64,000 bases of DNA from the NCBI GenBank assembly GCA_947631765.1, contig CANRMP010000012.1, positions 248-64,247 of the forward strand, written 5' to 3'. The stretch comes from an uncultured Clostridia bacterium (GTDB lineage Bacteria; Bacillota; Clostridia; Oscillospirales; CAG-272). Positions 7,116 to 24,338 of the stretch are shown here, one piece after another (position 1 is the stretch's first letter; every line of letters starts with the position of its first letter). The notes under the pieces were generated by a model that was not told the DNA's origin, made no database searches, and saw only the letters and a program-made list of their open reading frames with translations. The translations under genes were made by a program, and so were the position numbers.

Positions 7116-8888
7116 TTATTCCACGTCCTGAAGTGCGTCGTATCCTTCTTCTCCGGTACGCACCTTAACAACATTTTCAACATCATAAACGAATATCTTG
7201 CCGTCTCCGATATGTCCGGTATAAAGCACCTTCTTGGCGGTATCAATAACCGCGCTTACGGGAACCTTGCTTACCACAATGTCAACCTGAACCTTGGGAA
7301 GCAGCGAGGGCTCGACCTCAACTCCTCTGTAAAACTCCGGCTTACCCTTCTGAGCTCCGCAGCCGAGCACGTGCGAAACGGTCATGCCGGTTATTCCTAT
7401 TGCAACCATGGCGTTCTTGAGCGCCTCAAGCCTTGCTTCCTTGCAGACAATTTCAACCTTTGTGATCTTCACGCCGTCCGGAGCGCTCTTCTTTTCAAAG
7501 GTGGGAACCGCCTTGACCTCAACCGCCTCCGCAACCGGCGTATCGCCCGAAACAACGATAGGAGCCTCGTCCGCGTCTATGTATTCGGGAAGCATCGCAA
7601 AGCCCGCGTATGCCGAGGGAAGACCGTGTTCTGTAGCGTCAAGACCGGTAATTTCCTCTTCCTTGCTTACTCTTATTCCGACCGTTTTCTTGATTATAAG
7701 AAATACTATCGTTATTGTGATTGCCGTCCATGCCGCAACCGAGGCAAAGCCGAGAAGCTGAATACCGAGAAGCTCAAAGCCTCCGCCGTAGAAAAGACCT
7801 TCAATCGTCTTTCCCGAAGCGTTTGTTATCGAATAGCCGGGGGCTGTGTCGGTGGCAAGAAGTCCTACGGCAATTGTTCCCCAAATGCCGTTGAAGCAGT
7901 GTACCGCAACCGCGCCCACAGGGTCGTCGATATGAAGCACGTGGTCAAGAAACCACACTCCGAATACCACAAGCACTCCCGATACCGCGCCGATTATTGC
8001 AGCACCCAGCGCGTCTGTCACGTCACATCCGGCGGTAACCGCAACGAGTCCCGCAAGAGAGGCGTTAAGACACATCGAAACGTCCGGCTTGCCGTATTTT
8101 ATCCATGTGAATATCATGCACACAACCGTCGCCACGGAAGGCGCAACGGTAGTTGTAAGGAAGATTGACGCCAGCTGATCTACAGAGGTAGCCGCCGCGC
8201 CGTTAAAGCCGTACCAGCCGAGCCAGAGAATGAACACGCCGAGAGCACCGAGCGCTATGCTGTGACCGGGAAAGGCGTTGACCTTGACAACCTTGCCCTT
8301 TTCGTCTCTCTTGAATTTTCCGATTCTCGGTCCGAGAATTTTTGCGCCCACAAGAGCGGAAATACCGCCTACCATATGAATTGCGCAGGAGCCCGCAAAA
8401 TCGTGAAATCCGATTTGTGAGAGCCAGCCGCCGCCCCATATCCAGTGAGCCTCGATAGGATAAATAAGCGCCGAAATGACCGCAGAGTAAATGCAGTATG
8501 AAAGAAACTTTGTGCGCTCAGCCATTGCGCCCGAAACTATTGTTGCGGTCGTTGCGCAGAACACAAGGTTGAAAACAAAGCTCGAAAAGTCAAAGTCCTG
8601 ATACTTTGTGAAAATATCAAACCCGGGTTCTCCGATAAATCCGAACAGGTCCTCGCCCATAAGCAGTCCGAAGCCTATGAGAATAAAGACAACCGTTCCG
8701 ATACAGAAATCCATAAGGTTCTTCATTATAATGTTTCCGGTATTTTTCGGTCTTGTAAAGCCCGCTTCAACCATTGCAAAACCCGCCTGCATCCAAAACA
8801 CCAGCGCCGCGCCTATTAAAAACCACACGGCAAACAGCGAATCGTTTACAAGTGACGTTACTTCTTCCAAAGCCATGATAAAATCCAC
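7116..8888 (-). CDS. amtB: ammonium transporter (Amt) fused to a C-terminal P-II (GlnB/GlnK) domain
   Basis: 590 aa. The first ~430 aa are a multi-TM Amt (AGFAMVEAGF, HMVGGISALVGA, HCFNGIWG). The last 117 aa (7119..7469) are a complete P-II fold with T-loop GCGAQKGKPEFYRGVEVE and C-terminal GDGKIFVYDVENVVKVRTGEEG. Confidence 0.9.
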   Translation of the reverse strand: MDFIMALEEVTSLVNDSLFAVWFLIGAALVFWMQAGFAMVEAGFTRPKNTGNIIMKNLMDFCIGTVVFILIGFGLLMGEDLFGFIGEPGFDIFTKYQDFDFSSFVFNLVFCATTATIVSGAMAERTKFLSYCIYSAVISALIYPIEAHWIWGGGWLSQIGFHDFAGSCAIHMVGGISALVGAKILGPRIGKFKRDEKGKVVKVNAFPGHSIALGALGVFILWLGWYGFNGAAATSVDQLASIFLTTTVAPSVATVVCMIFTWIKYGKPDVSMCLNASLAGLVAVTAGCDVTDALGAAIIGAVSGVLVVFGVWFLDHVLHIDDPVGAVAVHCFNGIWGTIAVGLLATDTAPGYSITNASGKTIEGLFYGGGFELLGIQLLGFASVAAWTAITITIVFLIIKKTVGIRVSKEEEITGLDATEHGLPSAYAGFAMLPEYIDADEAPIVVSGDTPVAEAVEVKAVPTFEKKSAPDGVKITKVEIVCKEARLEALKNAMVAIGITGMTVSHVLGCGAQKGKPEFYRGVEVEPSLLPKVQVDIVVSKVPVSAVIDTAKKVLYTGHIGDGKIFVYDVENVVKVRTGEEGYDALQDVE

Positions 8889-8902
8889 CTCTTTAAATTT
8901 AA

Positions 8903-8941
8903 TTTTTCAAAAAGCATCCCCGCCTCCGTATGAAGCGGGGG
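8903..8941 (-). terminator. terminator or attenuator hairpin between glnN and amt::P-II
   Basis: Minus strand CCCCCGCUUCAUACGGAGGCGGGG followed by AUGCUUUUUG, located in the 76-nt spacer. Confidence 0.55.
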
Positions 8942-8964
8942 TGGCTTTAGATCGGTATTTAATT

Positions 8965-11061
8965 TCAGTTAACGCTGAAAAGCAGGTCTCCGTATGTCGG
9001 GAAGGGCCAGTACTTCTTTGCGGTAAGCGTCTCCGCCTCGTCGCAGGGGAGTCTTAGCTCGCTCATTTTTACAAGCAGCTTGTCACGAATGGCGTTTGCC
9101 ATCTCCATAATATCGCCTATCGACTTAATCTCAACAAGCGCCTTTTCAAGCTCGTCTGTCTTTGTCGCTATGCACTCGACAAGGGTTGAAAGCTTGTTGA
9201 CAAGCCCGTTCTCATAAATGCAGGAGGGACGAAGGTCAAGCGATTTTTTTGCCGCCGCTGTCTTTGCAAGCTCTAAAATGTAAGCCTCAATGGCGGGAGC
9301 TATTTCGGTTCTTGCCATATCCACCATTGTGTTTGCTTCGATAATAACCGTCTTGCAGTAGTTTTCAAGCATTATTTCACAGCGGGATTTAAGCTCCGCC
9401 TCCGAGAACACGCCGTGGGATATAAGCATATCCGCGTTCTTTTTATCAAGAAGGTGAGGCATACAGTCGGGAGTCGTGCGGTAATTGAGCAGTCCTCTTT
9501 CCTCTGTCGCAACCTTTATCCATGACTCGTCATAGCCGTTTCCGTTAAAGATTACTCTCTTGTGATCCTTTATTGTCTTCTTGATAAGGGCGTGAAGCGC
9601 CTCCTCAAAGTTTTCTGCGCTCTCAAGCCTGTCGGCGTAGCTCTTAAGGCTCTCGGCAACAGCGCTGTTAAGCATGATATTGGCGCACGCTATGCTGTTT
9701 GAGGAGCCGAGCATACGGAACTCAAACTTGTTGCCCGTGAATGCAAAGGGAGAGGTGCGGTTGCGGTCGGTTGTATCTCTGTTGAACTTGGGAAGGACGT
9801 CAACGCCGAGCTTCATCTGAGTTTTTTCAGCCGCGCTGTACGGCTTGTCGTTCTCAATAGCGTCCAGAATTGCCGAAAGCTCATCGCCAAGGAACATTGA
9901 AACGACTGCGGGAGGCGCCTCGTTGGCTCCCAGACGGTGGTCGTTTCCTGCCGTTGCGACAGAAATACGGAGGAGATCCTGATATTCGTCAACCGCCTTT
10001 ATAACGGCGCAAAGGAAGAGCAGGAACTGAGCATTCTCATAAGGCGTGTCGCCGGGTGAAAGAAGGTTTACGCCCGTGTCGGTAGCTATCGACCAGTTGT
10101 TGTGCTTACCGCTTCCGTTGACGCCCGCAAAAGGCTTTTCGTGAAGCAGGCAAACAAGTCCGTGACGGGAGGCAACCTTCTGCATAATCTCCATTGTGAG
10201 CTGGTTGTGGTCTGTCGCTATATTTGTGGTGCTGTATATCGGGGCAAGCTCGTGCTGAGCGGGCGCCACCTCGTTATGCTCGGTTTTTGCAAGTATTCCG
10301 AGCTTCCAAAGCTCCTCGTTGAGCTCCTGCATGTACGCCTCGACTCTCGGCTTAATAACTCCGAAATAGTGGTCGTCCATTTCCTGACCCTTCGGAGGCT
10401 TTGCACCAAACAGGGTTCTGCCGGTAAAGCGAAGGTCACGTCTTTTTTCATAAAGCGCTCTGTCAATAAGGAAATATTCCTGCTCGGGTCCTACCGAGGT
10501 GCGAACGCACTTTACGCTGTCGTTTCCGAAAAGCTTAAGTATTCTCATTGCCTGACGGTTGAGCGCCTCCATAGAACGAAGAAGAGGGGTCTTCTTGTCA
10601 AGCGCCTCGCCTCCGTATGAGCAAAACGCCGTCGGGATGCAAAGTGTTTTTCCTTTAATAAAGGCGTATGAGGTGGGGTCCCAAGCGGTATATCCTCTTG
10701 CCTCAAAGGTTGCCCGAAGTCCGCCCGAGGGGAATGAGGAAGCGTCAGGCTCGCCCTTTATAAGCTCCTTGCCCGAGAACTCCATTATAACTCCTCCGTC
10801 GGGAGAGGGCGAAATAAAGCCGTCGTGCTTTTCCGCCGTCACACCTGTAAGCGGCTGAAACCAATGCGTGTAATGCGTTGCGCCGTGAGCGACTGCCCAA
10901 TCCTTCATAGCGTTTGCCACGGCGTTTGCAACTCCGAGGTCAAGCTGTGTGCCTTCGTCGATTGTCTTTTTAAGCGACTGGTATACCTTTGCCGAAAGTG
11001 TAGCCTTCATCACTCTGTCGTCAAAAACCATGCTTCCAAAATACTCTGATACTGTTCCCAT
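8965..11061 (-). CDS. glnN: glutamine synthetase type III
   Basis: 698 aa, the size of GS-III. The N-terminus [15 protein letters not shown]...[12 protein letters not shown] is typical of GS-III; also [13 protein letters not shown] and [10 protein letters not shown]. Confidence 0.92.
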
Positions 11062-11200
11062 GATTTAATCTCCTTTTGTTTGTGTTATAAATGAAAAGGC
11101 AAGGGTGCCTTGTAATTAAGACGCCCTTGCCTTTAGTTACATATTTAGTTAAAATCGCTTTGCTTACATTATATGTACGCCGCAATAAAACGGTCAGCGC

Positions 11201-11255
11201 TTTAAAATAAAAATTCGCCCCGCAAGAAACTCTTCTTGCAGGACGCCTTTGCCCT
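11201..11255 (-). promoter_or_regulatory. glnN leader switch: AAAGGC-hexaloop hairpin overlapping an intrinsic terminator
   Basis: Minus strand AGGGC-AAAGGC-GTCCT (11255..11240). Terminator CGTCCTGCAAGAA-GAGT-TTCTTGCGGGGCG (11245..11216) plus AATTTTTATTTT (11215..11204). The two structures share GTCCT. Confidence 0.7.
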
Positions 11256-11265
11256 AACGCTATGC

Positions 11266-11294
11266 ATTATACACCCGAATTTTCAGATTGTCAA
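11266..11294 (-). promoter_or_regulatory. sigma-A-type promoter of the glnN-amt operon
   Basis: Minus strand TTGACA (11294..11289), 17 nt, TATAAT (11271..11266). Exact consensus. Confidence 0.75.
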
Positions 11295-11376
11295 TAGGTT
11301 TTTGAAAAAATTTTTTATTTTTTGTTTTGGAAAATAATGAGAAATGCCGAAAATCCGATTATTTGCAAAATAGCTA

Positions 11377-11405
11377 TTGACAAATGGAGGTTTGTCGTGT
11401 ATAAT
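11377..11405 (+). promoter_or_regulatory. sigma-A-type promoter of the glutamate synthase operon
   Basis: TTGACA (11377..11382), 17 nt, TATAAT (11400..11405). Exact consensus, divergent from the glnN promoter. Confidence 0.75.
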
Positions 11406-11414
11406 GATACGAAG

Positions 11415-11477
11415 ATGAGCAAAGGCGTTCATTTGAGAGCAGATTTTTCTGCCTTGAATGTACGTCTTTGCTTTTTT
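11415..11477 (+). promoter_or_regulatory. glt leader switch: AAAGGC-hexaloop hairpin versus long intrinsic terminator
   Basis: ATGAGC-AAAGGC-GTTCAT (11415..11432). Alternatively GCAAAGGCGT (11419..11428) pairs with ACGTCTTTGC (11462..11471) at the base of a ~24-bp helix followed by TTTTTT (11472..11477). RBS GAAAGGAAGG, then ATG at 11504. Confidence 0.7.
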
Positions 11478-11503
11478 CATATTGAAAGGAAGGCAGAGCA
11501 ATT

Positions 11504-12586
11504 ATGGAAAAAGAAGGTCAGGTGAGGATCCCTTCGGGCTGCGCCATTGCGGCGCTTATTTCAAGAGAGGGAAAGAGAATCCCGGGAAATATAATAAGCG
11601 AAGCCATGAAACCGATGCACGATCGCTCAAACGGGCTGGGCGGCGGATTTGCCGCATACGGCATATATCCCGAATACAAGGATTTTTACGCCCTTCACAT
11701 GTTTTTTGACGAGAGAGCCACAAGAAAAAACTGTGAGCAGTTTTTAAAGGAAAGATTTGAAATCGTAAAATCCGAGATAATTCCGACAAGAAAGATAGCG
11801 GCGATAACCGACGAGCCTATAATATGGAGGTATTTTGTGGCGCCGCTTAAATCGGTGCTTCTCTCCTTACAGCTTGACGAGAAGGAGTTTGTGGCGCGCA
11901 CGGTCATGAAGATAAACACCGAAATGGAGGGAGCCTACGTATTCTCCAGCGGAAAGAACATGGGAACCTTCAAGGCGGTGGGCTTTCCCGAGGACGTCGG
12001 CGTTTTCTACAAGCTTGAAGAGTATCTCGGCTACAGCTGGACCTCACACGGTCGCTATCCCACAAACACCCCGGGATGGTGGGGAGGCGCTCACCCGTTC
12101 ACCCTGCTTGACTATTCGGTGGTGCACAACGGCGAGATATCCTCATATGACGCAAACCGTCGCTTTATTGAGATGTTCGGATATAAGTGTACGCTTAAAA
12201 CCGATACCGAGGTCATTACGTACATTATGGATTATTTACTCAGAGTTCAGCATCTCACCCTCTCCGAGACGGCGTCTGTTATTGCCGCTCCCTTCTGGAG
12301 CACAATAGAGGGCAAGGATGAACAGGAGCGGGAGAAGCTTTCATTCCTTCGCACCGTCTTCCCCAGTCTGCTCATTACCGGTCCCTTCTCGATAGTGCTC
12401 GGCTTTGACGGCGGACTTATGGCGCTCAACGACCGCTTGAAGCTACGCTCGATGGTGGTCGGAGAAAAGGACGATATGGTATACATTGCAAGCGAGGAAG
12501 CGGCAATACGCGTCATGGAGCCTGATGTTCAAAACATATACGCCCCCGCCGGCGGAGAGCCTGTAATAGTTAAGGTAAAGGAGTGA
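11504..12586 (+). CDS. glutamate synthase domain 1 as a stand-alone protein (class-II glutamine amidotransferase)
   Basis: 360 aa. Ntn-type Cys in IPSGCAIAAL, GHGRYPTNTPG-like SHGRYPTNTPGWWGGAHPF, and VVHNGEISSY. First gene of a split archaeal-type GltS operon. Confidence 0.85.
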   Translation: MEKEGQVRIPSGCAIAALISREGKRIPGNIISEAMKPMHDRSNGLGGGFAAYGIYPEYKDFYALHMFFDERATRKNCEQFLKERFEIVKSEIIPTRKIAAITDEPIIWRYFVAPLKSVLLSLQLDEKEFVARTVMKINTEMEGAYVFSSGKNMGTFKAVGFPEDVGVFYKLEEYLGYSWTSHGRYPTNTPGWWGGAHPFTLLDYSVVHNGEISSYDANRRFIEMFGYKCTLKTDTEVITYIMDYLLRVQHLTLSETASVIAAPFWSTIEGKDEQEREKLSFLRTVFPSLLITGPFSIVLGFDGGLMALNDRLKLRSMVVGEKDDMVYIASEEAAIRVMEPDVQNIYAPAGGEPVIVKVKE

Positions 12587-12593
12587 GCAATTA

Positions 12594-14099
12594 ATGTCGG
12601 ACATTTACATATATCCCGAATTTGAAGTTATAAGAAATCCGTCGCGCTGTATATGCTGTCGAGTTTGCGAGCGGCAGTGCGCAAATAAAGTGCATATTTA
12701 CGAAAAAGAGAGCAAAATGATGCTTTCCGACGAAAGCAAATGCGTCAATTGTCAGCGCTGTGTTTCGCTCTGCCCCACGCACGCGCTTAAAATCGTGAAA
12801 AGCGACTGCCGTCTGCGCGAGAATGCCAACTGGCAGGACGATACGATAAAGGAAATATACAAGCAGGCAAACAGCGGCGGCGTGCTTCTCTCCTCGATGG
12901 GAAACCCGAAGCCCCTGCCCGTCTACTGGGACAGGATATTAATTAACGCGTCGCAGGTGACAAACCCGCCTATCGACCCTTTGAGAGAGCCTATGGAGAC
13001 AAGGGTTTTTCTCGGTAAAAAGCCGGAAAAAATCACAAGGGATGAAAACGGCAAGCTTGTAACAAAGCTCCCTCCACAGCTTCATCTTTCAATGCCCGTA
13101 ATGTTTTCCGCAATGAGCTACGGCTCGATAAGCTACAACGCGCATGAAAGCCTTGCAAGGGCGGCAAGCGAGCTTGGAATATACTACAACACCGGAGAGG
13201 GCGGACTGCACGAGGACTTTTACTGCTACGGTGACAACACAATAGTTCAAGTAGCCTCGGGACGTTTCGGAGTTCATAAAAAATATCTTGACGCCGGTGC
13301 GGCGATAGAGATTAAAATGGGACAGGGCGCCAAGCCGGGAATCGGCGGTCACCTTCCGGGCGCTAAAATCGTCGGCGACGTTTCGCGCACACGAATGATT
13401 CCCGAAGGCTCTGACGCCATATCGCCTGCCCCTCACCACGACATATATTCAATAGAAGATTTAAGACAGCTTGTCTTTTCATTAAAGGAAGCGACAGGAT
13501 ACAAAAAGCCTGTTATAGTCAAGGTTGCGGCGGTTCACAACATCGCGGCAATTGCCAGCGGAATTGCGCGAAGCGGAGCCGACATAATCGCCATTGACGG
13601 CTTCAGGGGAGGTACCGGAGCCGCTCCCACAAGGATTCGTGACAATGTGGGAATACCGATAGAGCTTGCCCTTGCCGCGGTTGACCAAAGACTGCGCGAT
13701 GAGGGAATAAGAAACAACGTCTCGCTTGTCGCCGGAGGAAGCATCAGAAGCGCCGCCGACGTTATTAAGGCGGTAGCTCTCGGCGCGGACGCCTGCTATA
13801 TTGCAACCGCGGCGGTTATAGCTCTCGGATGTCATCTCTGCCGCACCTGCCAGAGCGGCAAGTGCAACTGGGGAATTGCAACTCAGAATCCGGAGCTTGT
13901 AAAACGCCTCAATCCCGACATCGGAAGCCGCCGGCTTGTAAATCTCATGACCGCTTGGAGGCATGAAATCATGGAGCTTATGGGCGGAATGGGTATAAAC
14001 TCGATAGAAAGCCTTCGCGGCAACCGTCTCATGCTTCGCGGAGTCGGACTTACCGACAGAGAGCTTTCGATACTCGGCATAGCTCACGCCGGCGAATAA
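12594..14099 (+). CDS. glutamate synthase FMN-binding domain protein with N-terminal 2x[4Fe-4S] ferredoxin module
   Basis: 501 aa. CxxCxxCxxxC motifs (CICCRVCERQC, CVNCQRCVSLCP), then the GltS_FMN core QVASGRFGV...KMGQGAKPGIGGHLPG...ISPAPHHDIYSIEDL...GFRGGTGAAP. Confidence 0.88.
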   Translation: MSDIYIYPEFEVIRNPSRCICCRVCERQCANKVHIYEKESKMMLSDESKCVNCQRCVSLCPTHALKIVKSDCRLRENANWQDDTIKEIYKQANSGGVLLSSMGNPKPLPVYWDRILINASQVTNPPIDPLREPMETRVFLGKKPEKITRDENGKLVTKLPPQLHLSMPVMFSAMSYGSISYNAHESLARAASELGIYYNTGEGGLHEDFYCYGDNTIVQVASGRFGVHKKYLDAGAAIEIKMGQGAKPGIGGHLPGAKIVGDVSRTRMIPEGSDAISPAPHHDIYSIEDLRQLVFSLKEATGYKKPVIVKVAAVHNIAAIASGIARSGADIIAIDGFRGGTGAAPTRIRDNVGIPIELALAAVDQRLRDEGIRNNVSLVAGGSIRSAADVIKAVALGADACYIATAAVIALGCHLCRTCQSGKCNWGIATQNPELVKRLNPDIGSRRLVNLMTAWRHEIMELMGGMGINSIESLRGNRLMLRGVGLTDRELSILGIAHAGE

Positions 14100-14161
14100 G
14101 GCGAGCCGCACGCGTCCAAATAAGCTTCGTTTATAAGATTAACGAAAGGTATAGTCATAAA

Positions 14162-14590
14162 ATGAAAAGAGTTTATGTAAACGAAAAATGGTGTCTCGGA
14201 TGTCACCTTTGCGAATATAACTGCGCCTTTGCAAATTCGGGAAAAATTGACATGGCGCTTGCCCTGAAAGATAAACCAATATATCCGAGAATACACATCG
14301 ACGGGGACGAAAAGGTGCCCTTTGCCATCTCCTGCCGTCACTGCACCGACCCGATTTGCGTAAAAAGCTGTATTTCGGGGGCGCTCAAATCAAAGGACGG
14401 CGTTATTACCGTCGATAAAGAGCGCTGTGTGGGCTGTCTTACCTGTATTCTCGTCTGCCCTTACGGCGCGCTTACCGAAGGAAATGACGGTGTGGCGACA
14501 AAATGCGAGCTTTGCATTGAAAACTCCTGTGAGAGTCCCGCCTGCGCCGCGGGCTGTCCCAACGGGGCAATTGTTTATGAGGAAAGGTGA
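14162..14590 (+). CDS. 4Fe-4S dicluster ferredoxin-domain protein
   Basis: 142 aa, Cys-rich, with CLGCHLCEYNC, CVGCLTCILVCP and CELCIENSC...CAAGCP. Confidence 0.8.
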   Translation: MKRVYVNEKWCLGCHLCEYNCAFANSGKIDMALALKDKPIYPRIHIDGDEKVPFAISCRHCTDPICVKSCISGALKSKDGVITVDKERCVGCLTCILVCPYGALTEGNDGVATKCELCIENSCESPACAAGCPNGAIVYEER

Positions 14591-14595
14591 ACAAA

Positions 14596-15843
14596 ATGTC
14601 AGAATACGTTATAATAGGCAACGGCGCCGCCGCGGCGGGCTGTATTGAAGGAATACGCAGTGTTGACAGAAAAACTCCGATAACCGTTATATCAAAGGAA
14701 AACCGTCCGGCGTACTGCCGTCCTCTTATTTCCTATTACCTTGAAGGAAAAGCCGTACCCGAAAGAATAGGCTACCGTGAGGCGGATTTTTACCAAAAGA
14801 ACGCCTGCAACGTACTCTACGGCAAAAGCGCCCTCTCTGTTGACGGCGAAAAAAAGTACGTCACCCTTGACAGCGGGGAGACCCTGCCCTACACCGCTTT
14901 GTGCATTGCCGCCGGCTCCTCTCCCATAATGCTCCCGATAGCGGGAATTGAGAAGGTAAAAAAGCTTTTTACCTTCATGACGCTTGACGACGCTACTGCA
15001 ATAAAGGAGGCTGTCGGCAAAGAAAGCCGCGTTCTCATAATAGGCGCGGGACTTATCGGCTTAAAGTGCGCCGAGGGACTTTGCGAAAGTGTGAAAAGCA
15101 TTGCGGTTTGCGATCTTGCCGCACGTGTGCTTTCAAGCATACTTGACGATGAGTGCGCAGCTCTTATGCAAAAAAAGCTTGAGGAACACAATGCGAGCTT
15201 TATGCTCGGCGACACTGTCGAAGGCTTTGAAGAAAACGAGGCTTTGATGAGAAGCGGCAAAAAAGTAGGCTTTGATATTGTCATAATGGCAGCCGGAGTG
15301 CGCCCGAACACCTCTGCCGCAAAGACGGCCGGAGCCGAGGTAAATCGCGGAATTATCGTAAACGACAGAATGGAAAGCACAGTCAGGGGTATATATGCCG
15401 CGGGAGACTGCGCAGAAGGAATGGACATATCGCTTGGCGCGCGCCGCGTGCTTGCCATTCTCCCAAACGCCTATATGCAGGGCTATTGCGCCGGTGTGAA
15501 TATGGCGGGCGGGGAGTATGTGTTTGACAAGGGCATTCCGATGAACGCCATCGGCTTTTTCGGGCTCCACGCTCTGAGCGCCGGAAGCTATTTTACAAAG
15601 GAGCAAGGCGGAGAAATATACGAGGAAAGGTCGGAAGGCAAAATCAGGCGGCTTTTCACAAAAGACAACCGACTTTGCGGATTTATGTTCATCGGAGACA
15701 CAGATAAAATAGGAATTTACACCTCTCTTATCCGCGACAGGGTGCCTCTTGACACAATAAATTTTGATCTGCTGAAAAAAAGTGCAACTTTTGCAGCTTT
15801 TTCTCCCGAAATACGTGGAAAAAAATTCGGAGGTGTGGTATAA
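14596..15843 (+). CDS. NAD(P)/FAD-dependent pyridine-nucleotide oxidoreductase (probable electron-input subunit)
   Basis: ORF track starts at GTG 14587. ATG 14596 has GAGGAAAGG upstream. Two Rossmann motifs, IIGNGAAAAGC and IIGAGLIGLKCAE, plus AAGDCAE. Confidence 0.8.
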   Translation: MSEYVIIGNGAAAAGCIEGIRSVDRKTPITVISKENRPAYCRPLISYYLEGKAVPERIGYREADFYQKNACNVLYGKSALSVDGEKKYVTLDSGETLPYTALCIAAGSSPIMLPIAGIEKVKKLFTFMTLDDATAIKEAVGKESRVLIIGAGLIGLKCAEGLCESVKSIAVCDLAARVLSSILDDECAALMQKKLEEHNASFMLGDTVEGFEENEALMRSGKKVGFDIVIMAAGVRPNTSAAKTAGAEVNRGIIVNDRMESTVRGIYAAGDCAEGMDISLGARRVLAILPNAYMQGYCAGVNMAGGEYVFDKGIPMNAIGFFGLHALSAGSYFTKEQGGEIYEERSEGKIRRLFTKDNRLCGFMFIGDTDKIGIYTSLIRDRVPLDTINFDLLKKSATFAAFSPEIRGKKFGGVV

Positions 15844-16565
15844 TGACAGTAATAGACGCCGCAGGGCTCGATTACAAGGAGCTTAACGACCTTATAAGAG
15901 AGGGCAAGGAAGACATAACGCTTATAAACTGCCTCGGGCAAAGGTTTATCGCCTCGGGCGCAGAAAAGCTCCATCTTGTTATAAAGGGCATACCCGGCAA
16001 TGCGCTCGGCGCTTATCTTGACGGCGCCGTGATAGACGTCCTCGGCAACGCTCAGGACGCCGTGGGCGACACCATGAACGACGGAGCTATAGTAATTCAC
16101 GGAAATATCGGAGACGCCGCGGGATACGCCATGAGGGGCGGAAAAATATTTGTGAAAAACAACGCCGGATACCGCGCCGGCATACACATGAAGGCGTATA
16201 AAGATAAGGTTCCCGTTATGGTCATCGGAGGGTGCGCGGGAAGCTTTCTCGGAGAGTATCAGGCGGGAGGAAAAATCGCCGTTTTGGGGCTTGAGAGCAA
16301 CGGAAAAAAGATTGTCGGAAACTTTCCCTGCACCGGTATGCACGGCGGTATGATGTTTCTGCGCGGCAAATGCGAAGGTGTAGCCTTTCCGGCAAAAGTG
16401 CATGTCAAAACCGCCTCCGATTCCGACATCAGCGAGATATACAATGAAATACACGAGTTTTGCACGCTCTTTGAAAAGGACGAAAAGGAAATTATCTCCT
16501 CTCCTTTTACATTAATAACACCCGATACAAAAAATCCGTACAAGCAGATGTACGTTGCAAATTAA
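15843..16565 (+). CDS. glutamate synthase C-terminal GXGXG-domain protein
   Basis: 240 aa. Repeated G-x-G beta-helix motifs (GIPGNALGAYLDG, GNAQDAVGDTMNDG, GNIGDAAGYAMRGG, NNAGYRAG, GGCAGSFLGEYQAGG). Start overlaps the upstream stop (TAATG). Confidence 0.85.
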   Translation: MTVIDAAGLDYKELNDLIREGKEDITLINCLGQRFIASGAEKLHLVIKGIPGNALGAYLDGAVIDVLGNAQDAVGDTMNDGAIVIHGNIGDAAGYAMRGGKIFVKNNAGYRAGIHMKAYKDKVPVMVIGGCAGSFLGEYQAGGKIAVLGLESNGKKIVGNFPCTGMHGGMMFLRGKCEGVAFPAKVHVKTASDSDISEIYNEIHEFCTLFEKDEKEIISSPFTLITPDTKNPYKQMYVAN

Positions 16566-16614: not shown

Positions 16615-17841
16615 ATGAAATACTCGGCACAGGAGGTCATGCAGTTTGTCAGCGAGGAGGACGTTAAGTTCATCCGTCTCGCCTTCTGCGATGTATACGG
16701 CGTCCAAAAGAACATATCGATAATGCCCGGAGAGCTGTCCCGCGCCTTTGAACAAGGTATCGCCTTCGACGCCTCGGCAATCGGGAGCTTGGGTACTTTA
16801 AAAACGGGCGACCTTTTTATCCGTCCCGACCCTTCCACTCTCTCAGTCCTTCCTTGGCGCCCCGACCACGGAAGAGTGGTGCGCCTTTTCGGCAGTATTA
16901 CCTATCCCGACGGCAGACCCTTTGAAAATGACACGAGAGGACTGCTTATAAAAGCGGTTAAGGATGCCGAAAAGGAAGGAATTCAGTTCAATATCGGGGC
17001 TGAGACCGAATTTTATCTTTTCAGGCTTGATGAAAACGGAGCAAACACAAGCATTCCCTATGACGAGGCGGGATATATGGATATCGCCCCCGAGGACAGA
17101 GGGGAAAACGTGCGGCGTGAGATCTGCCTTACCTTGGAGCAGATGGGTATACGCCCCGAAAGCTCTTACCATGAAGCGGGACCCGGACAAAACGAAATAG
17201 ATTTCTGCTATTCAGACCCTCTTTCAGCCGCCGACAACGCCACAACCTTCCGAACAGTTGTCAAAACCGTGGCTCACCGCAACGGTCTGTGGGCTGATTT
17301 TTCGCCAAGACCTCTTGAGGGAAAGCCCGGAAACGGCTTTTATATCAATATTTCCGCCAAGGATGCAAACGGCAGGGCAAGAGACGATCTTCTGCCCCAT
17401 ATCATAGCGGGGCTTATCGAAAAAACCCCCGATATTACCGTTTTTCTCAATCCAACAAAAAATTCCTACAGCCGTTTCGGAAAATTCAACGCCCCCTCCT
17501 GCATTTCCTGGGCGTATGAAAACCGCTCTCAGCTTATACGCGTTCCTGCCGCCTCGGGCAATTACCGCCGCGCACAGCTTCGCTCCTCCGACCCGACGGC
17601 AAACCCGTATCTTGCCTTGGCGCTTGTAATATACTCCGCGCTCTACGGAATAAAAAACAAAACAAATCCCCCTTTTCCTTGCGAGACGGATTTATGCCAA
17701 GCAGAGGTAAAGGACGGTGCGCCTTTAAAAAAGCTCCCGTCTTCGCTTGAAGAGGCAAGCGAAATTGCGCAAAAGAGCGATTTTATAAAAAAATGCCTGC
17801 CGGACAGTCTTGCACAGAAATACTTTGTCCGCGCAAAATAA
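16615..17841 (+). CDS. glutamine synthetase type-I-like protein with substituted catalytic residues (probable pseudoenzyme or sensor)
   Basis: 408 aa. Clear GS-I fold (FIRLAFCDVYG, GAETEFYLF, SYHEAGPGQNEIDF, NRSQLIRVP, DPTANPYLALA). However it has PGNGFYINIS in place of NGSGMH.N.S, KFNAP in place of GYEAP, and RRAQLRS in place of R.E.RS. Confidence 0.8.
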   Translation: MKYSAQEVMQFVSEEDVKFIRLAFCDVYGVQKNISIMPGELSRAFEQGIAFDASAIGSLGTLKTGDLFIRPDPSTLSVLPWRPDHGRVVRLFGSITYPDGRPFENDTRGLLIKAVKDAEKEGIQFNIGAETEFYLFRLDENGANTSIPYDEAGYMDIAPEDRGENVRREICLTLEQMGIRPESSYHEAGPGQNEIDFCYSDPLSAADNATTFRTVVKTVAHRNGLWADFSPRPLEGKPGNGFYINISAKDANGRARDDLLPHIIAGLIEKTPDITVFLNPTKNSYSRFGKFNAPSCISWAYENRSQLIRVPAASGNYRRAQLRSSDPTANPYLALALVIYSALYGIKNKTNPPFPCETDLCQAEVKDGAPLKKLPSSLEEASEIAQKSDFIKKCLPDSLAQKYFVRAK

Positions 17842-17883: not shown

Positions 17884-18468
17884 GTGAGCTTAGAACAACC
17901 TGTTTACAGCGTTCTTGCGGTATCAGCTTCAGACAGCTTCAATAAATCCCTTATAAGCCTGCTCCCCGATTCAAGGTTCAGTCCCTTGCGGTTTGAAGAG
18001 AGCGTAAGCGCGGCAAAAAGGGCATTTCTTGAGCGGCGCTACGATTTTGTTATTATTAACTCTCCCCTGCCCGACGACGTGGGCACAAGACTTGCTATTG
18101 ACATTTGCAGTGAAAAGAACGGCATTTGTCTGCTTTTGGTAAAAGCCGAGCTTTACGAGGCGGTTTACAACAGAGTGTACGAACATGGAGTCTACGTAAT
18201 GCCGAAGCCCATGTCAAAGCAGATGTTTTCAGAGGCTATGGACTTTATGATTTCCACAGAATGTCGCCTCAGAAAGCTTGAAAAGAAAACCGTGTCGATT
18301 GAAGAAAAGATGCAGGAAATACGCACGGTGAACCGAGCAAAATGGATACTTATCGAGCGCCTCAAAATGACCGAGAGCGACGCCCACCGATATATCGAAA
18401 AACAGGCTATGGACCGTTGCGTCTCGCGCAGCGATATCGCCGAGAGCATTATAAAAACGTATTCTTAA
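17884..18468 (+). CDS. ANTAR-domain RNA-binding antiterminator with a pseudo-receiver N-domain (AmiR/NasR-like architecture)
   Basis: 194 aa. GTG start with AAGGAGGG 7 nt upstream. C-terminal VNRAKWILIERLKMTESDAHRYIEKQAMDRCVSRSDIAESII is an ANTAR domain. The receiver-like N-domain has Asn59 (FVIINSPLP) where the phospho-Asp normally sits. Confidence 0.85.
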   Translation: MSLEQPVYSVLAVSASDSFNKSLISLLPDSRFSPLRFEESVSAAKRAFLERRYDFVIINSPLPDDVGTRLAIDICSEKNGICLLLVKAELYEAVYNRVYEHGVYVMPKPMSKQMFSEAMDFMISTECRLRKLEKKTVSIEEKMQEIRTVNRAKWILIERLKMTESDAHRYIEKQAMDRCVSRSDIAESIIKTYS

Positions 18469-24292: not shown

Positions 24293-24338
24293 AAAGGACG
24301 GCATAAAGGCTTTTCGCCTTTGTGCCGTCCTTTTTATG
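24293..24338. terminator. 18-bp hairpin terminator between the convergent DpnI-like and mltG genes
   Basis: AAAGGACGGCATAAAGGC-TTTTC-GCCTTTGTGCCGTCCTTT followed by TTTAT. Confidence 0.8.

Follow-up and report, generated by a model that had tools for sequence, protein, structure and literature searches.

Single-hexaloop leader hairpins overlapping intrinsic terminators point to ANTAR-type attenuation of divergent ammonium-assimilation operons in an uncultured Clostridia bacterium

In a stretch of 64,000 nucleotides from an uncultured Clostridia bacterium (analysed at its full length and called the window below), two divergent nitrogen-assimilation operons are separated by an intergenic space at 11062-11503, and both are preceded by leaders in which a short hairpin with a six-nucleotide loop competes with an intrinsic terminator. 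We conclude, with a probability of roughly 80 per cent, that these leaders are protein-dependent transcription attenuators of the ANTAR (NitR) type, which place the ammonium-assimilation genes under post-initiation control. On the minus strand the controlled genes (7116..11061) are glnN, encoding a type III glutamine synthetase (GS; 8965-11061), and an amt-PII fusion gene (7116-8888). The plus-strand operon starts with the genes of a split glutamate synthase (GOGAT; 11504..16565), which comprises amidotransferase, FMN, Fe-S, NAD(P)H oxidoreductase and GXGXG subunits. These are followed by the gene of a GS I-alpha-like protein of 408 amino acids (16615..17841) and, directly downstream of it, by that of a 194-amino-acid pseudo-receiver and ANTAR protein (17884..18468; Pfam ANTAR, 1.1e-16), the presumed NitR-like antiterminator, after which a strong terminator closes the operon. 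An earlier reading made from the letters of the DNA (the sequence-only reading) had assigned the genes correctly, including the ANTAR gene as the last of the glt operon.

Both operons are preceded by a promoter that matches the consensus TTGACA-17-TATAAT at 12 of 12 positions (11294..11266, minus strand, for glnN-amt; 11377..11405, plus strand, for glt), and 8-10 nucleotides downstream of each promoter there is a 6-bp hairpin whose AAAGGC hexaloop sits on a C-G closing pair followed by a G.U pair. In the glnN leader this hairpin, (U)AGGGC-AAAGGC-GUCCU(G), extends over 11256..11239 (minus strand; -6.7 kcal/mol when folded alone) and begins at about +3 to +5 of the transcript. Its core, AGGGC-AAAGGC-GTCCT, occupies 11255..11240 and contains one G.U pair; a sixth pair, U.G, is possible. 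The 3' arm of this putative ANTAR-binding antiterminator is at the same time the 5' arm of an intrinsic terminator (11245..11204, minus strand) with a 13-bp stem, CGTCCTGCAAGAA-GAGT-TTCTTGCGGGGCG (11245..11216), which is followed by AATTTTTATTTT, the U-tract stretch AAUUUUUAUUUU reaching to 11204. The terminator fold has a free energy of -24.2 kcal/mol (z = -4.2), and the whole arrangement is referred to here as attenuator 1. In the glt leader the hairpin ATGAGC-AAAGGC-GTTCAT (11415..11432, plus strand), which can be extended by (AG)...(UU) to 11413..11434 (-7.3 kcal/mol alone), starts at about +1 to +3 of the transcript. The competing intrinsic terminator (11419..11477, plus strand; -37.3 kcal/mol, z = -8.2) is a helix of about 25 bp followed by UUUUUU at 11472..11477; at its foot GCAAAGGCGT (11419..11428) pairs with ACGTCTTTGC (11462..11471), and the helix takes in the hexaloop and the 3' arm of the hairpin. 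The combination of a G+C-rich stem-loop and a U-tract that characterizes intrinsic terminators is clear in attenuator 1 and in the glt leader. A base-by-base check upheld all coordinates proposed in the sequence-only reading, and in the computed folds the two leaders form competing structures as it had claimed. Its further proposal, that the shared 10-mer GCAAAGGCGT is either displayed in the hairpin or buried in the terminator, holds for the glt leader; of the glnN hairpin, no more than the final loop base and the 3' arm are taken up by the terminator.

A third copy of the hairpin, absent from that reading, was detected by motif scan further downstream in the glnN leader: AAGGC-AAGGGC-GUCUU (11133..11118, minus strand), which contains the 10-mer with one mismatch. 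Its sequence falls within the 5' arm of another strong stem-loop (11134..11095, -24.6 kcal/mol), after which comes UCAUUU; this second attenuator as a whole takes up 11086-11137. The predicted terminator of this attenuator 2, AAAGGCAAGGG.GUCUU......AAGGC.CCCUUGCCUUU followed by UCAUUUAU (11134..11086, minus strand), is located about 25 nucleotides before the glnN ribosome-binding site, and its U-tract is interrupted (UUUUCAUUU). All three hairpins of the window thus have A1/G4 hexaloops (AAAGGC, AAGGGC and AAAGGC). Between attenuators 1 and 2 there is a promoter-like sequence, CTGACC-18-TATAAT, at 11168-11197 (minus strand), which matches the consensus at 10 of 12 positions; if real, it would yield transcripts under attenuator 2 alone, and in the few relatives inspected it had no equivalent.

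The free energy of the terminator fold and that of the fold with the hairpin enforced were -22.6 vs -11.1 kcal/mol for attenuator 1, -24.6 vs -11.7 kcal/mol for attenuator 2 and -34.3 vs -16.1 kcal/mol for the glt leader, and in all three attenuators the computed hairpin and terminator were mutually exclusive. Because the terminator is favoured by 11-18 kcal/mol, termination should be the default state, and read-through should therefore need a factor that holds the hairpin.

Short hairpins are easily drawn in AT-rich leaders, and allowing one mismatch the 10-mer was found 14 times in the window where 7 matches were expected, so that one might suspect two ordinary leader terminators which share a 10-mer by chance. 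The exact 10-mer, by contrast, occurs only at the two leader sites (64 kb, both strands). A relaxed scan of the window for a C-AANGRY-G hexaloop on a stem of at least 5 bp gave six matches vs 1.0 in shuffled sequences; three of the six were sense-oriented and within the 400-bp leader region, and there were no other sense-strand leader sites. Against chance there are also the comparative data: 128 homologous instances with covariation from more than 60 loci, and at least 120 more from metagenomes. These data already refute a chance resemblance, to which we assign a probability close to nil.

For the comparison, 80 genome loci of related Clostridia were retrieved with a profile of the ANTAR protein, which has thousands of homologues in Clostridia metagenome-assembled genomes, and the upstream regions were chosen by gene position, not by motif. 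Of the regions preceding the first glt gene, 33 of 34 contained an A..G.. hexaloop hairpin with at least 5 bp in the stem, as did 44 of 45 of those preceding glnN; conservation in relatives, which the sequence-only reading had named as a check on its proposal, was therefore borne out. The 128 instances occupy the same position relative to promoter and gene. In nearly all loci TTGACA-17-TATAAT ends 7-10 nucleotides before the hairpin and the inferred transcription start is 1-5 nucleotides before the stem, the spacing being 7-10 nucleotides in most related glnN leaders and 7-9 nucleotides in about 31 of the 34 related glt leaders. The loop consensus is A-A-N-G-R-Y, with A1, A2 and G4 invariant in 127 distinct instances and position 3 free. 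Two classes could be distinguished: AUGAGC-AAAGGC-GUUCAU in the leaders of glt operons and of stand-alone GS-like/ANTAR units (the glt class), and AAAGGC-AANGRC-GUCUUU in glnN, gdhA and amt leaders (the gln class). The closing C-G pair is invariant in both classes, and the neighbouring G.U pair is present in 33/33 glt-class and 74/77 gln-class sequences. The gene arrangement amt-glnN <> glt...-GS-like-ANTAR is widespread, with synteny kept across the 80 loci, and tandem attenuators 65-130 nucleotides apart are common in related glnN leaders (e.g. loci L005, L016, L026, L039, L058, L067 and L079).

Pairing in the terminator helices was supported by the alignments. In the glt terminator helix 90.6% of the cells were paired, with 43 compensatory cells, and in the gln terminator core 91.3%, with 120 compensatory cells in the whole tested structure; in either case none of 500 shuffles scored as high (0/500), and in slid controls at most about 62% were paired. 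Loop position 3 and its counterpart in the terminator 3' arm were A-U in 76, G-C in 13, U-A in 6 and C-G in 4 sequences. Because the two positions change together, the hexaloop must truly be part of the terminator stem, and the minimum-energy fold pairs at least four loop bases with downstream sequence in 117 of the 128 instances. The small hairpin was paired in 100% of 198 cells in the glt class (33 relatives) and in 90.5% of the cells in the gln class. Most of its pairs are invariant. Compensation was seen at the sixth pair, which in the gln class is AU in 47, GU in 9, GC in 5, UA in 4, CG in 2 and UG in 2 sequences (13 double changes), and in a few single sequences such as GUGAGC...GUUCAC. 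Of the compensatory changes in the hairpin stems to which the sequence-only reading had looked for support, these were found, while most pairs never vary; with a hairpin so strongly conserved, true covariation is confined mostly to the sixth pair. The glt-class 5' arm is largely outside the terminator; the most likely reason for its conservation is that it pairs within the hairpin.

These features bear on the level at which the element works. Its position, right after the -10 box, is one at which polymerase could be blocked by a repressor, and 5'-terminal stem-loops stabilise mRNAs in Firmicutes; the inverted repeat could accordingly be a DNA operator (GlnR/TnrA-like or other) or a stabilising 5' stem-loop, followed by terminators that are constitutively 'leaky'. 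In DNA, however, the G.U pair found in 33/33 and 74/77 sequences would be a mismatch; the element is always sense-oriented, and it also occurs far from promoters, in the second attenuator and between gdhA and glnN. The co-variation of loop position 3 with the terminator 3' arm is a constraint that only RNA imposes, and a stabiliser would not need an invariant A-A-N-G loop. Taken together, the invariant G.U pair and the fixed sense orientation argue for an element acting at the RNA level and not at the DNA level. The DNA-operator reading was rejected because the G.U pair is invariant, because the element is strand-specific and because some instances lie between genes, and operator and stabiliser taken together appear very unlikely.

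If the element acts as RNA, a leader sensing a metabolite such as glutamine directly, with no protein, would resemble the observed arrangement in that the downstream genes belong to the glutamine/glutamate pathway and the terminator/antiterminator logic is that of a riboswitch expression platform. However, the conserved part is only the 18-nucleotide hairpin, the remaining leader varying in sequence and length, and neither an internal loop nor a junction that might provide a binding pocket is conserved. A scan of 10500-12000 with Rfam 15 at E<=10 gave no relevant match, the glutamine riboswitch included, and over the whole 64 kb no family (riboswitch, T-box or other curated RNA) reached its gathering score. 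No ANTAR-target model turned up in these scans either (E<=10 around the leaders, gathering score over the window). With only 18 nucleotides conserved the riboswitch reading was rejected; we regard it as extremely improbable.

The association of the element with an ANTAR gene was examined starting from the motif. Metagenome contigs scanned for the 18-mer ATGAGCAAAGGCGTTCAT yielded at least 120 loci. Among the matches listed, the first gene downstream was the first glt gene in 56, the GS-like gene in 26 and neither of these in 38. Twenty of the 38 listed loci in the last class were inspected and all were pyrG leaders with the same promoter-hairpin-terminator layout; the other 18 had no gene call in the available sequence, most of them with less than about 1.2 kb of contig downstream. 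Where at least 8 kb of sequence was available, 15 of 17 contigs led by glt or the GS-like gene encoded an ANTAR homologue downstream, again among the matches listed; for contigs led by the GS-like gene, with 2 kb or more, the figure was 17 of 18. Motif and ANTAR gene are thus linked in a motif-retrieved sample as well.

The closest solved structures to the ANTAR protein of the window are Rv1626 and AmiR. In the alignment to Rv1626 its Asn59 takes the place of the phospho-acceptor Asp (at least 90% conserved in 26 homologues), Ser-Ala-Ser occupies the usual site of the acidic pocket, and the cluster contains no kinase gene. Judged by these residues the protein is of the pseudo-receiver type like AmiR. 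With Asn at the acceptor position it should not be open to phosphorylation, so that a protein partner probably controls its activity. In every locus that covers the sequence upstream of the ANTAR gene, this gene is directly preceded by the GS-like gene. The GS-like protein is a relative of GS I-alpha (B. subtilis GS, E = 2e-94) and scores 307 bits vs the NCBI GlnA cut-off of 429. Of 68 members of this family, 66 have Lys in place of the catalytic flap Glu304 (B. subtilis numbering), and in the window copy alone metal ligands are also replaced (His245 by Tyr and Glu333 by Gln). The altered residues point to a non-catalytic, possibly sensory role, and by analogy with AmiC-AmiR and NasS-NasT it is plausible that the protein senses nitrogen status and controls the ANTAR protein. 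Deletion of a type I GS reportedly 'deregulates nitrogen metabolism', as the title of a 2017 article by Rydzak has it.

The tight linkage of the GS-like gene to the motif, which equals that of the ANTAR gene, could also mean that the GS-like protein itself, or a PII-type or another RNA-binding protein, binds the hairpin and that the ANTAR protein acts elsewhere, the attenuator logic remaining the same; the absence of the canonical two-hairpin ANTAR site would be in line with this. We know of no GS or PII protein that binds hexaloop RNA. The experimentally defined ANTAR site has the consensus P1 = SYAC-AAHGRH-GUDB and P2 = RRGY-AAHGDV-GCYY (PMC3369931), and the loops and closing pair of the present hairpins match P2 position by position (GAGC-AAAGGC-GUUC and AGGC-AAAGGC-GUCU), with U for C at the second 3' position, which makes the G.U pair, and with G at position 3 of some loops. 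Crystal structures show that the EutV dimer contacts a single hexaloop, which redefined the minimal ANTAR site as one hexaloop (PMC8934654), and one hexaloop is what the leaders offer. Binding by another factor is thus unlikely.

From the computed structures and their mutual exclusivity, and the observed conservation, covariation and genomic association with the ANTAR gene, the following model of ANTAR-dependent attenuation can be drawn up. The strong, near-consensus promoters would fire constitutively. The first approximately 20 nucleotides of the transcript would fold into the 6-bp hairpin that displays AA-N-G-R-Y over the C-G closing pair and the G.U pair. If the hairpin remained unbound, the next 30-45 nucleotides would be made, and their 3' segment would displace it by pairing with the loop and/or the 3' arm; the more stable terminator and the U-tract would then stop transcription before glnN or the glt genes, the default being OFF. 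Under nitrogen limitation the ANTAR protein, whose gene is the last of the glt operon, would bind and hold the hexaloop hairpin, the terminator would be unable to nucleate, and RNA polymerase would read through. In this model glnN would be under two such attenuators in series, and, with the regulator's own operon behind the same switch, positive autoregulation is expected. The activity of the regulator would probably be set by a partner, for which the GS-like protein encoded immediately upstream is the obvious candidate, as is the case with AmiC-AmiR or NasS-NasT. The binding of the ANTAR protein to the hairpin, the direction of the response and the identity of the partner are inferred.

Several observations weigh against the model as it stands. 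The tandem P1+P2 arrangement of published ANTAR sites, with its 5-12 nucleotide linker, was not found: there was no P1 upstream, and none above chance within 45 nucleotides. With the -10 box ending 7-10 nucleotides before the hairpin, an upstream P1 could not even be transcribed. A second A1/G4 hexaloop hairpin within 45 nucleotides on either side was present in 1/38, 4/38, 1/90 and 4/90 instances, no more than in shuffled sequences. The sequence-only reading had cautioned that the published sites consist of two tandem hairpins, a caveat that was well placed as the canonical arrangement is absent from the family. The second hairpin it had drawn in the glnN leader, GCAAGA-AGAGTT-TCTTGC, is present in the sequence, but it is not conserved, such a hairpin occurring in 4/90 relatives, this one included, the level of shuffles; its AGAGTT and ATTTTT candidates were both rejected as conserved features because they occur at chance level. 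EutV requires both hairpins in vivo, the P1 recruitment hairpin being essential for antitermination (PMC8934654), and in its absence here the EutV mechanism cannot simply be transferred. The energy gap of 11-18 kcal/mol implies that the ANTAR protein would have to act kinetically, while about 20-30 nucleotides are transcribed. In attenuator 2 the G at loop position 3 (AAGGGC) is outside the published H (A, C or U), and with the hairpin held a residual AAGGCA-CCCU-UGCCUU (11096-11111, minus strand) followed by UUCAUUU can still form, so that relief of termination there may be incomplete or may need more than the hairpin. As for the genomic association, the co-occurrence with the ANTAR gene in the 80-locus set holds by construction, these loci having been fetched via the ANTAR protein; the metagenome sample is the only independent set and may be redundant, with many contigs from the same gut species. 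Taking into account that one hexaloop suffices as minimal site and that P1 is missing, we consider the family a natural P1-less variant; for want of the tandem P1 hairpin it was classed as a variant and not as a plain member of the ANTAR-target RNAs.

Further modules were noted in the relatives. The gene gdhA (NADP-glutamate dehydrogenase) is preceded by the same module in loci L001, L007, L012, L032, L033, L045, L050, L052, L074 and L076. A promoter-hairpin-terminator module was also found before a purC-like (SAICAR synthetase) gene in L020 and L033, before a purA-like (adenylosuccinate synthetase) gene in L026, and before pyrG (CTP synthase) in an abundant human-gut lineage (L100-L197). The regulon therefore appears to reach steps that consume aspartate (SAICAR and adenylosuccinate synthetase) or glutamine (CTP synthase). 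Between the divergent glnN <> GS-like/ANTAR genes of some relatives the attenuator forms an almost perfect palindrome, and both strands carry the hexaloop motif (L054, 3131-3184; L060, 8572-8625; L064, 8560-8613; L074, 6917-6974; L030, ~7390-7453; L026, ~1103-1158); it seems to be a single bidirectional terminator serving two convergently overlapping leaders.

In the window, the spacer between glnN and amt (8888-8965, minus strand) contains an ordinary terminator-like hairpin, CCCCGC...GCGGGG, followed by AUGCUUUUUG, and the hexaloop motif is absent from it. The likely amt start is the ATG at ~8875 behind the ribosome-binding site AAAGAGGTGG, rather than the GTG at 8888. The fusion protein (7116-8888, minus strand) comprises Amt (residues 21-423) and PII (residues 476-580) and replaces separate amtB and glnK genes. 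A covariance model built from the glnN-class attenuator (R1) was used in an unfiltered search of the window. The attenuator 2 terminator scored 40.5 bits, a value to be read with the presence of this sequence in the seed in mind, and the plus strand of attenuator 2 scored 27 bits. Leaving aside the two seed sites, the best match was that of the glt leader (16.3 bits, E = 0.27); the next, at 24294, proved to be an ordinary terminator on inspection, and nothing else in the window was convincing.

The wider picture drawn from these results is tentative, and we give it rather less than an even chance: in gut and rumen Clostridia (relatives of Lachnospiraceae, Oscillospiraceae and Erysipelotrichaceae) the whole ammonium-assimilation regulon may be on a minimal, P1-less ANTAR switch, with a GS-derived pseudo-enzyme as nitrogen sensor. 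Such a regulon may comprise glnN, gdhA, GOGAT and amt and, in some species, pyrG, purA and purC, each behind one 5'-end hexaloop hairpin; an ANTAR protein that cannot be phosphorylated may hold this hairpin, and the pseudo-enzyme may determine how much of that protein is available. If true, this would be a case in nature in which to study the need for a recruitment hairpin in canonical ANTAR systems, and a new coupling of the GS fold to gene control at the RNA level. The basic reading of the leaders is not new, ANTAR antitermination of nitrogen genes in Firmicutes having been predicted since 2012 and NitR reported in 2007. What is added is an RNA element that is sharply delimited and occurs very widely, with more than 240 instances retrieved; it can serve in the annotation of nitrogen regulons, both in the industrial C. 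thermocellum and in Clostridia of gut and rumen that have not been cultured. The single-hexaloop architecture also bears on the EutV puzzle of why P1 is needed if the dimer contacts one loop, and the active-site-altered GS paralogue together with the pseudo-receiver ANTAR protein is a concrete candidate for the signal input.

Among known systems, the eut leaders of Enterococcus faecalis and their regulator EutV (PMC3369931, PMC8934654) share with the present leaders the A1/G4 hexaloop hairpin and the C-G closing pair, to which A2 is added here, and, like P2, the hairpin shares sequence with the 5' half of an intrinsic terminator. EutV likewise combines a receiver-like and an ANTAR domain, and there are several attenuators per regulon. 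In contrast to the eut leaders, there is no P1 here and the single hairpin starts at about +1 to +5, its second pair is G.U instead of G-C, and the targets are ammonium-assimilation genes in place of eut genes; in contrast to EutV, the receiver has no phospho-acceptor Asp and the cluster has no kinase gene. The P2 hairpin of the Klebsiella oxytoca nasF leader, GGAU-AAAGGC-GUCC, recognized by NasR, has the same hexaloop and nearly the same 3' arm as attenuator 1 and also serves nitrogen assimilation, whereas NasR carries a NIT sensor domain and the upstream hairpin of the nasF leader is essential. With AmiC-AmiR and NasS-NasT, in which the ANTAR protein is sequestered by a sensor protein (PMC3369936, PMC3795266), the present system has in common a non-phosphorylated receiver-like domain joined to ANTAR and an adjacent gene for a candidate ligand-binding partner; here the putative partner would be a glutamine-synthetase paralogue and not a periplasmic-binding-protein-like protein.

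The closest parallels are clostridial. According to citing papers, NitR of C. saccharobutylicum (Stutz et al. 2007) induces GS and GOGAT by antitermination under nitrogen limitation (via PMC6316151), and in the glnA-nitR and gltAB system, as outlined there, the ANTAR protein is encoded directly downstream of a type I GS gene as it is here (via PMC6316151, PMC4676874). The GS of that system is the working enzyme of the organism, whereas here the flap Glu of the GS-like protein is replaced and the regulated GS is glnN (type III). ANTAR sites have been predicted upstream of GS, GOGAT, PII, amt and ANTAR genes in other Firmicutes (PMC3369931), and the predicted regulons of Desulfotomaculum, Carboxydothermus, Alkaliphilus and Ethanoligenens contain the same target genes as here. 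Their P2 hairpins, e.g. GGC-AAUGAU-GCC, are close to GGC-AAAGGC-GUC (PMC3369931, Tables S1/S2, Figure S2); those sites were found with, and show, P1 and P2 (032, 037, 039), while the family described here is P2-like only. In C. thermocellum the same cluster is present and co-expressed (PMC4676874), with Clo1313_2030 encoding the receiver (REC)-ANTAR protein, 2031 GS I-alpha, 2032-2036 GOGAT and 2038 glnN.

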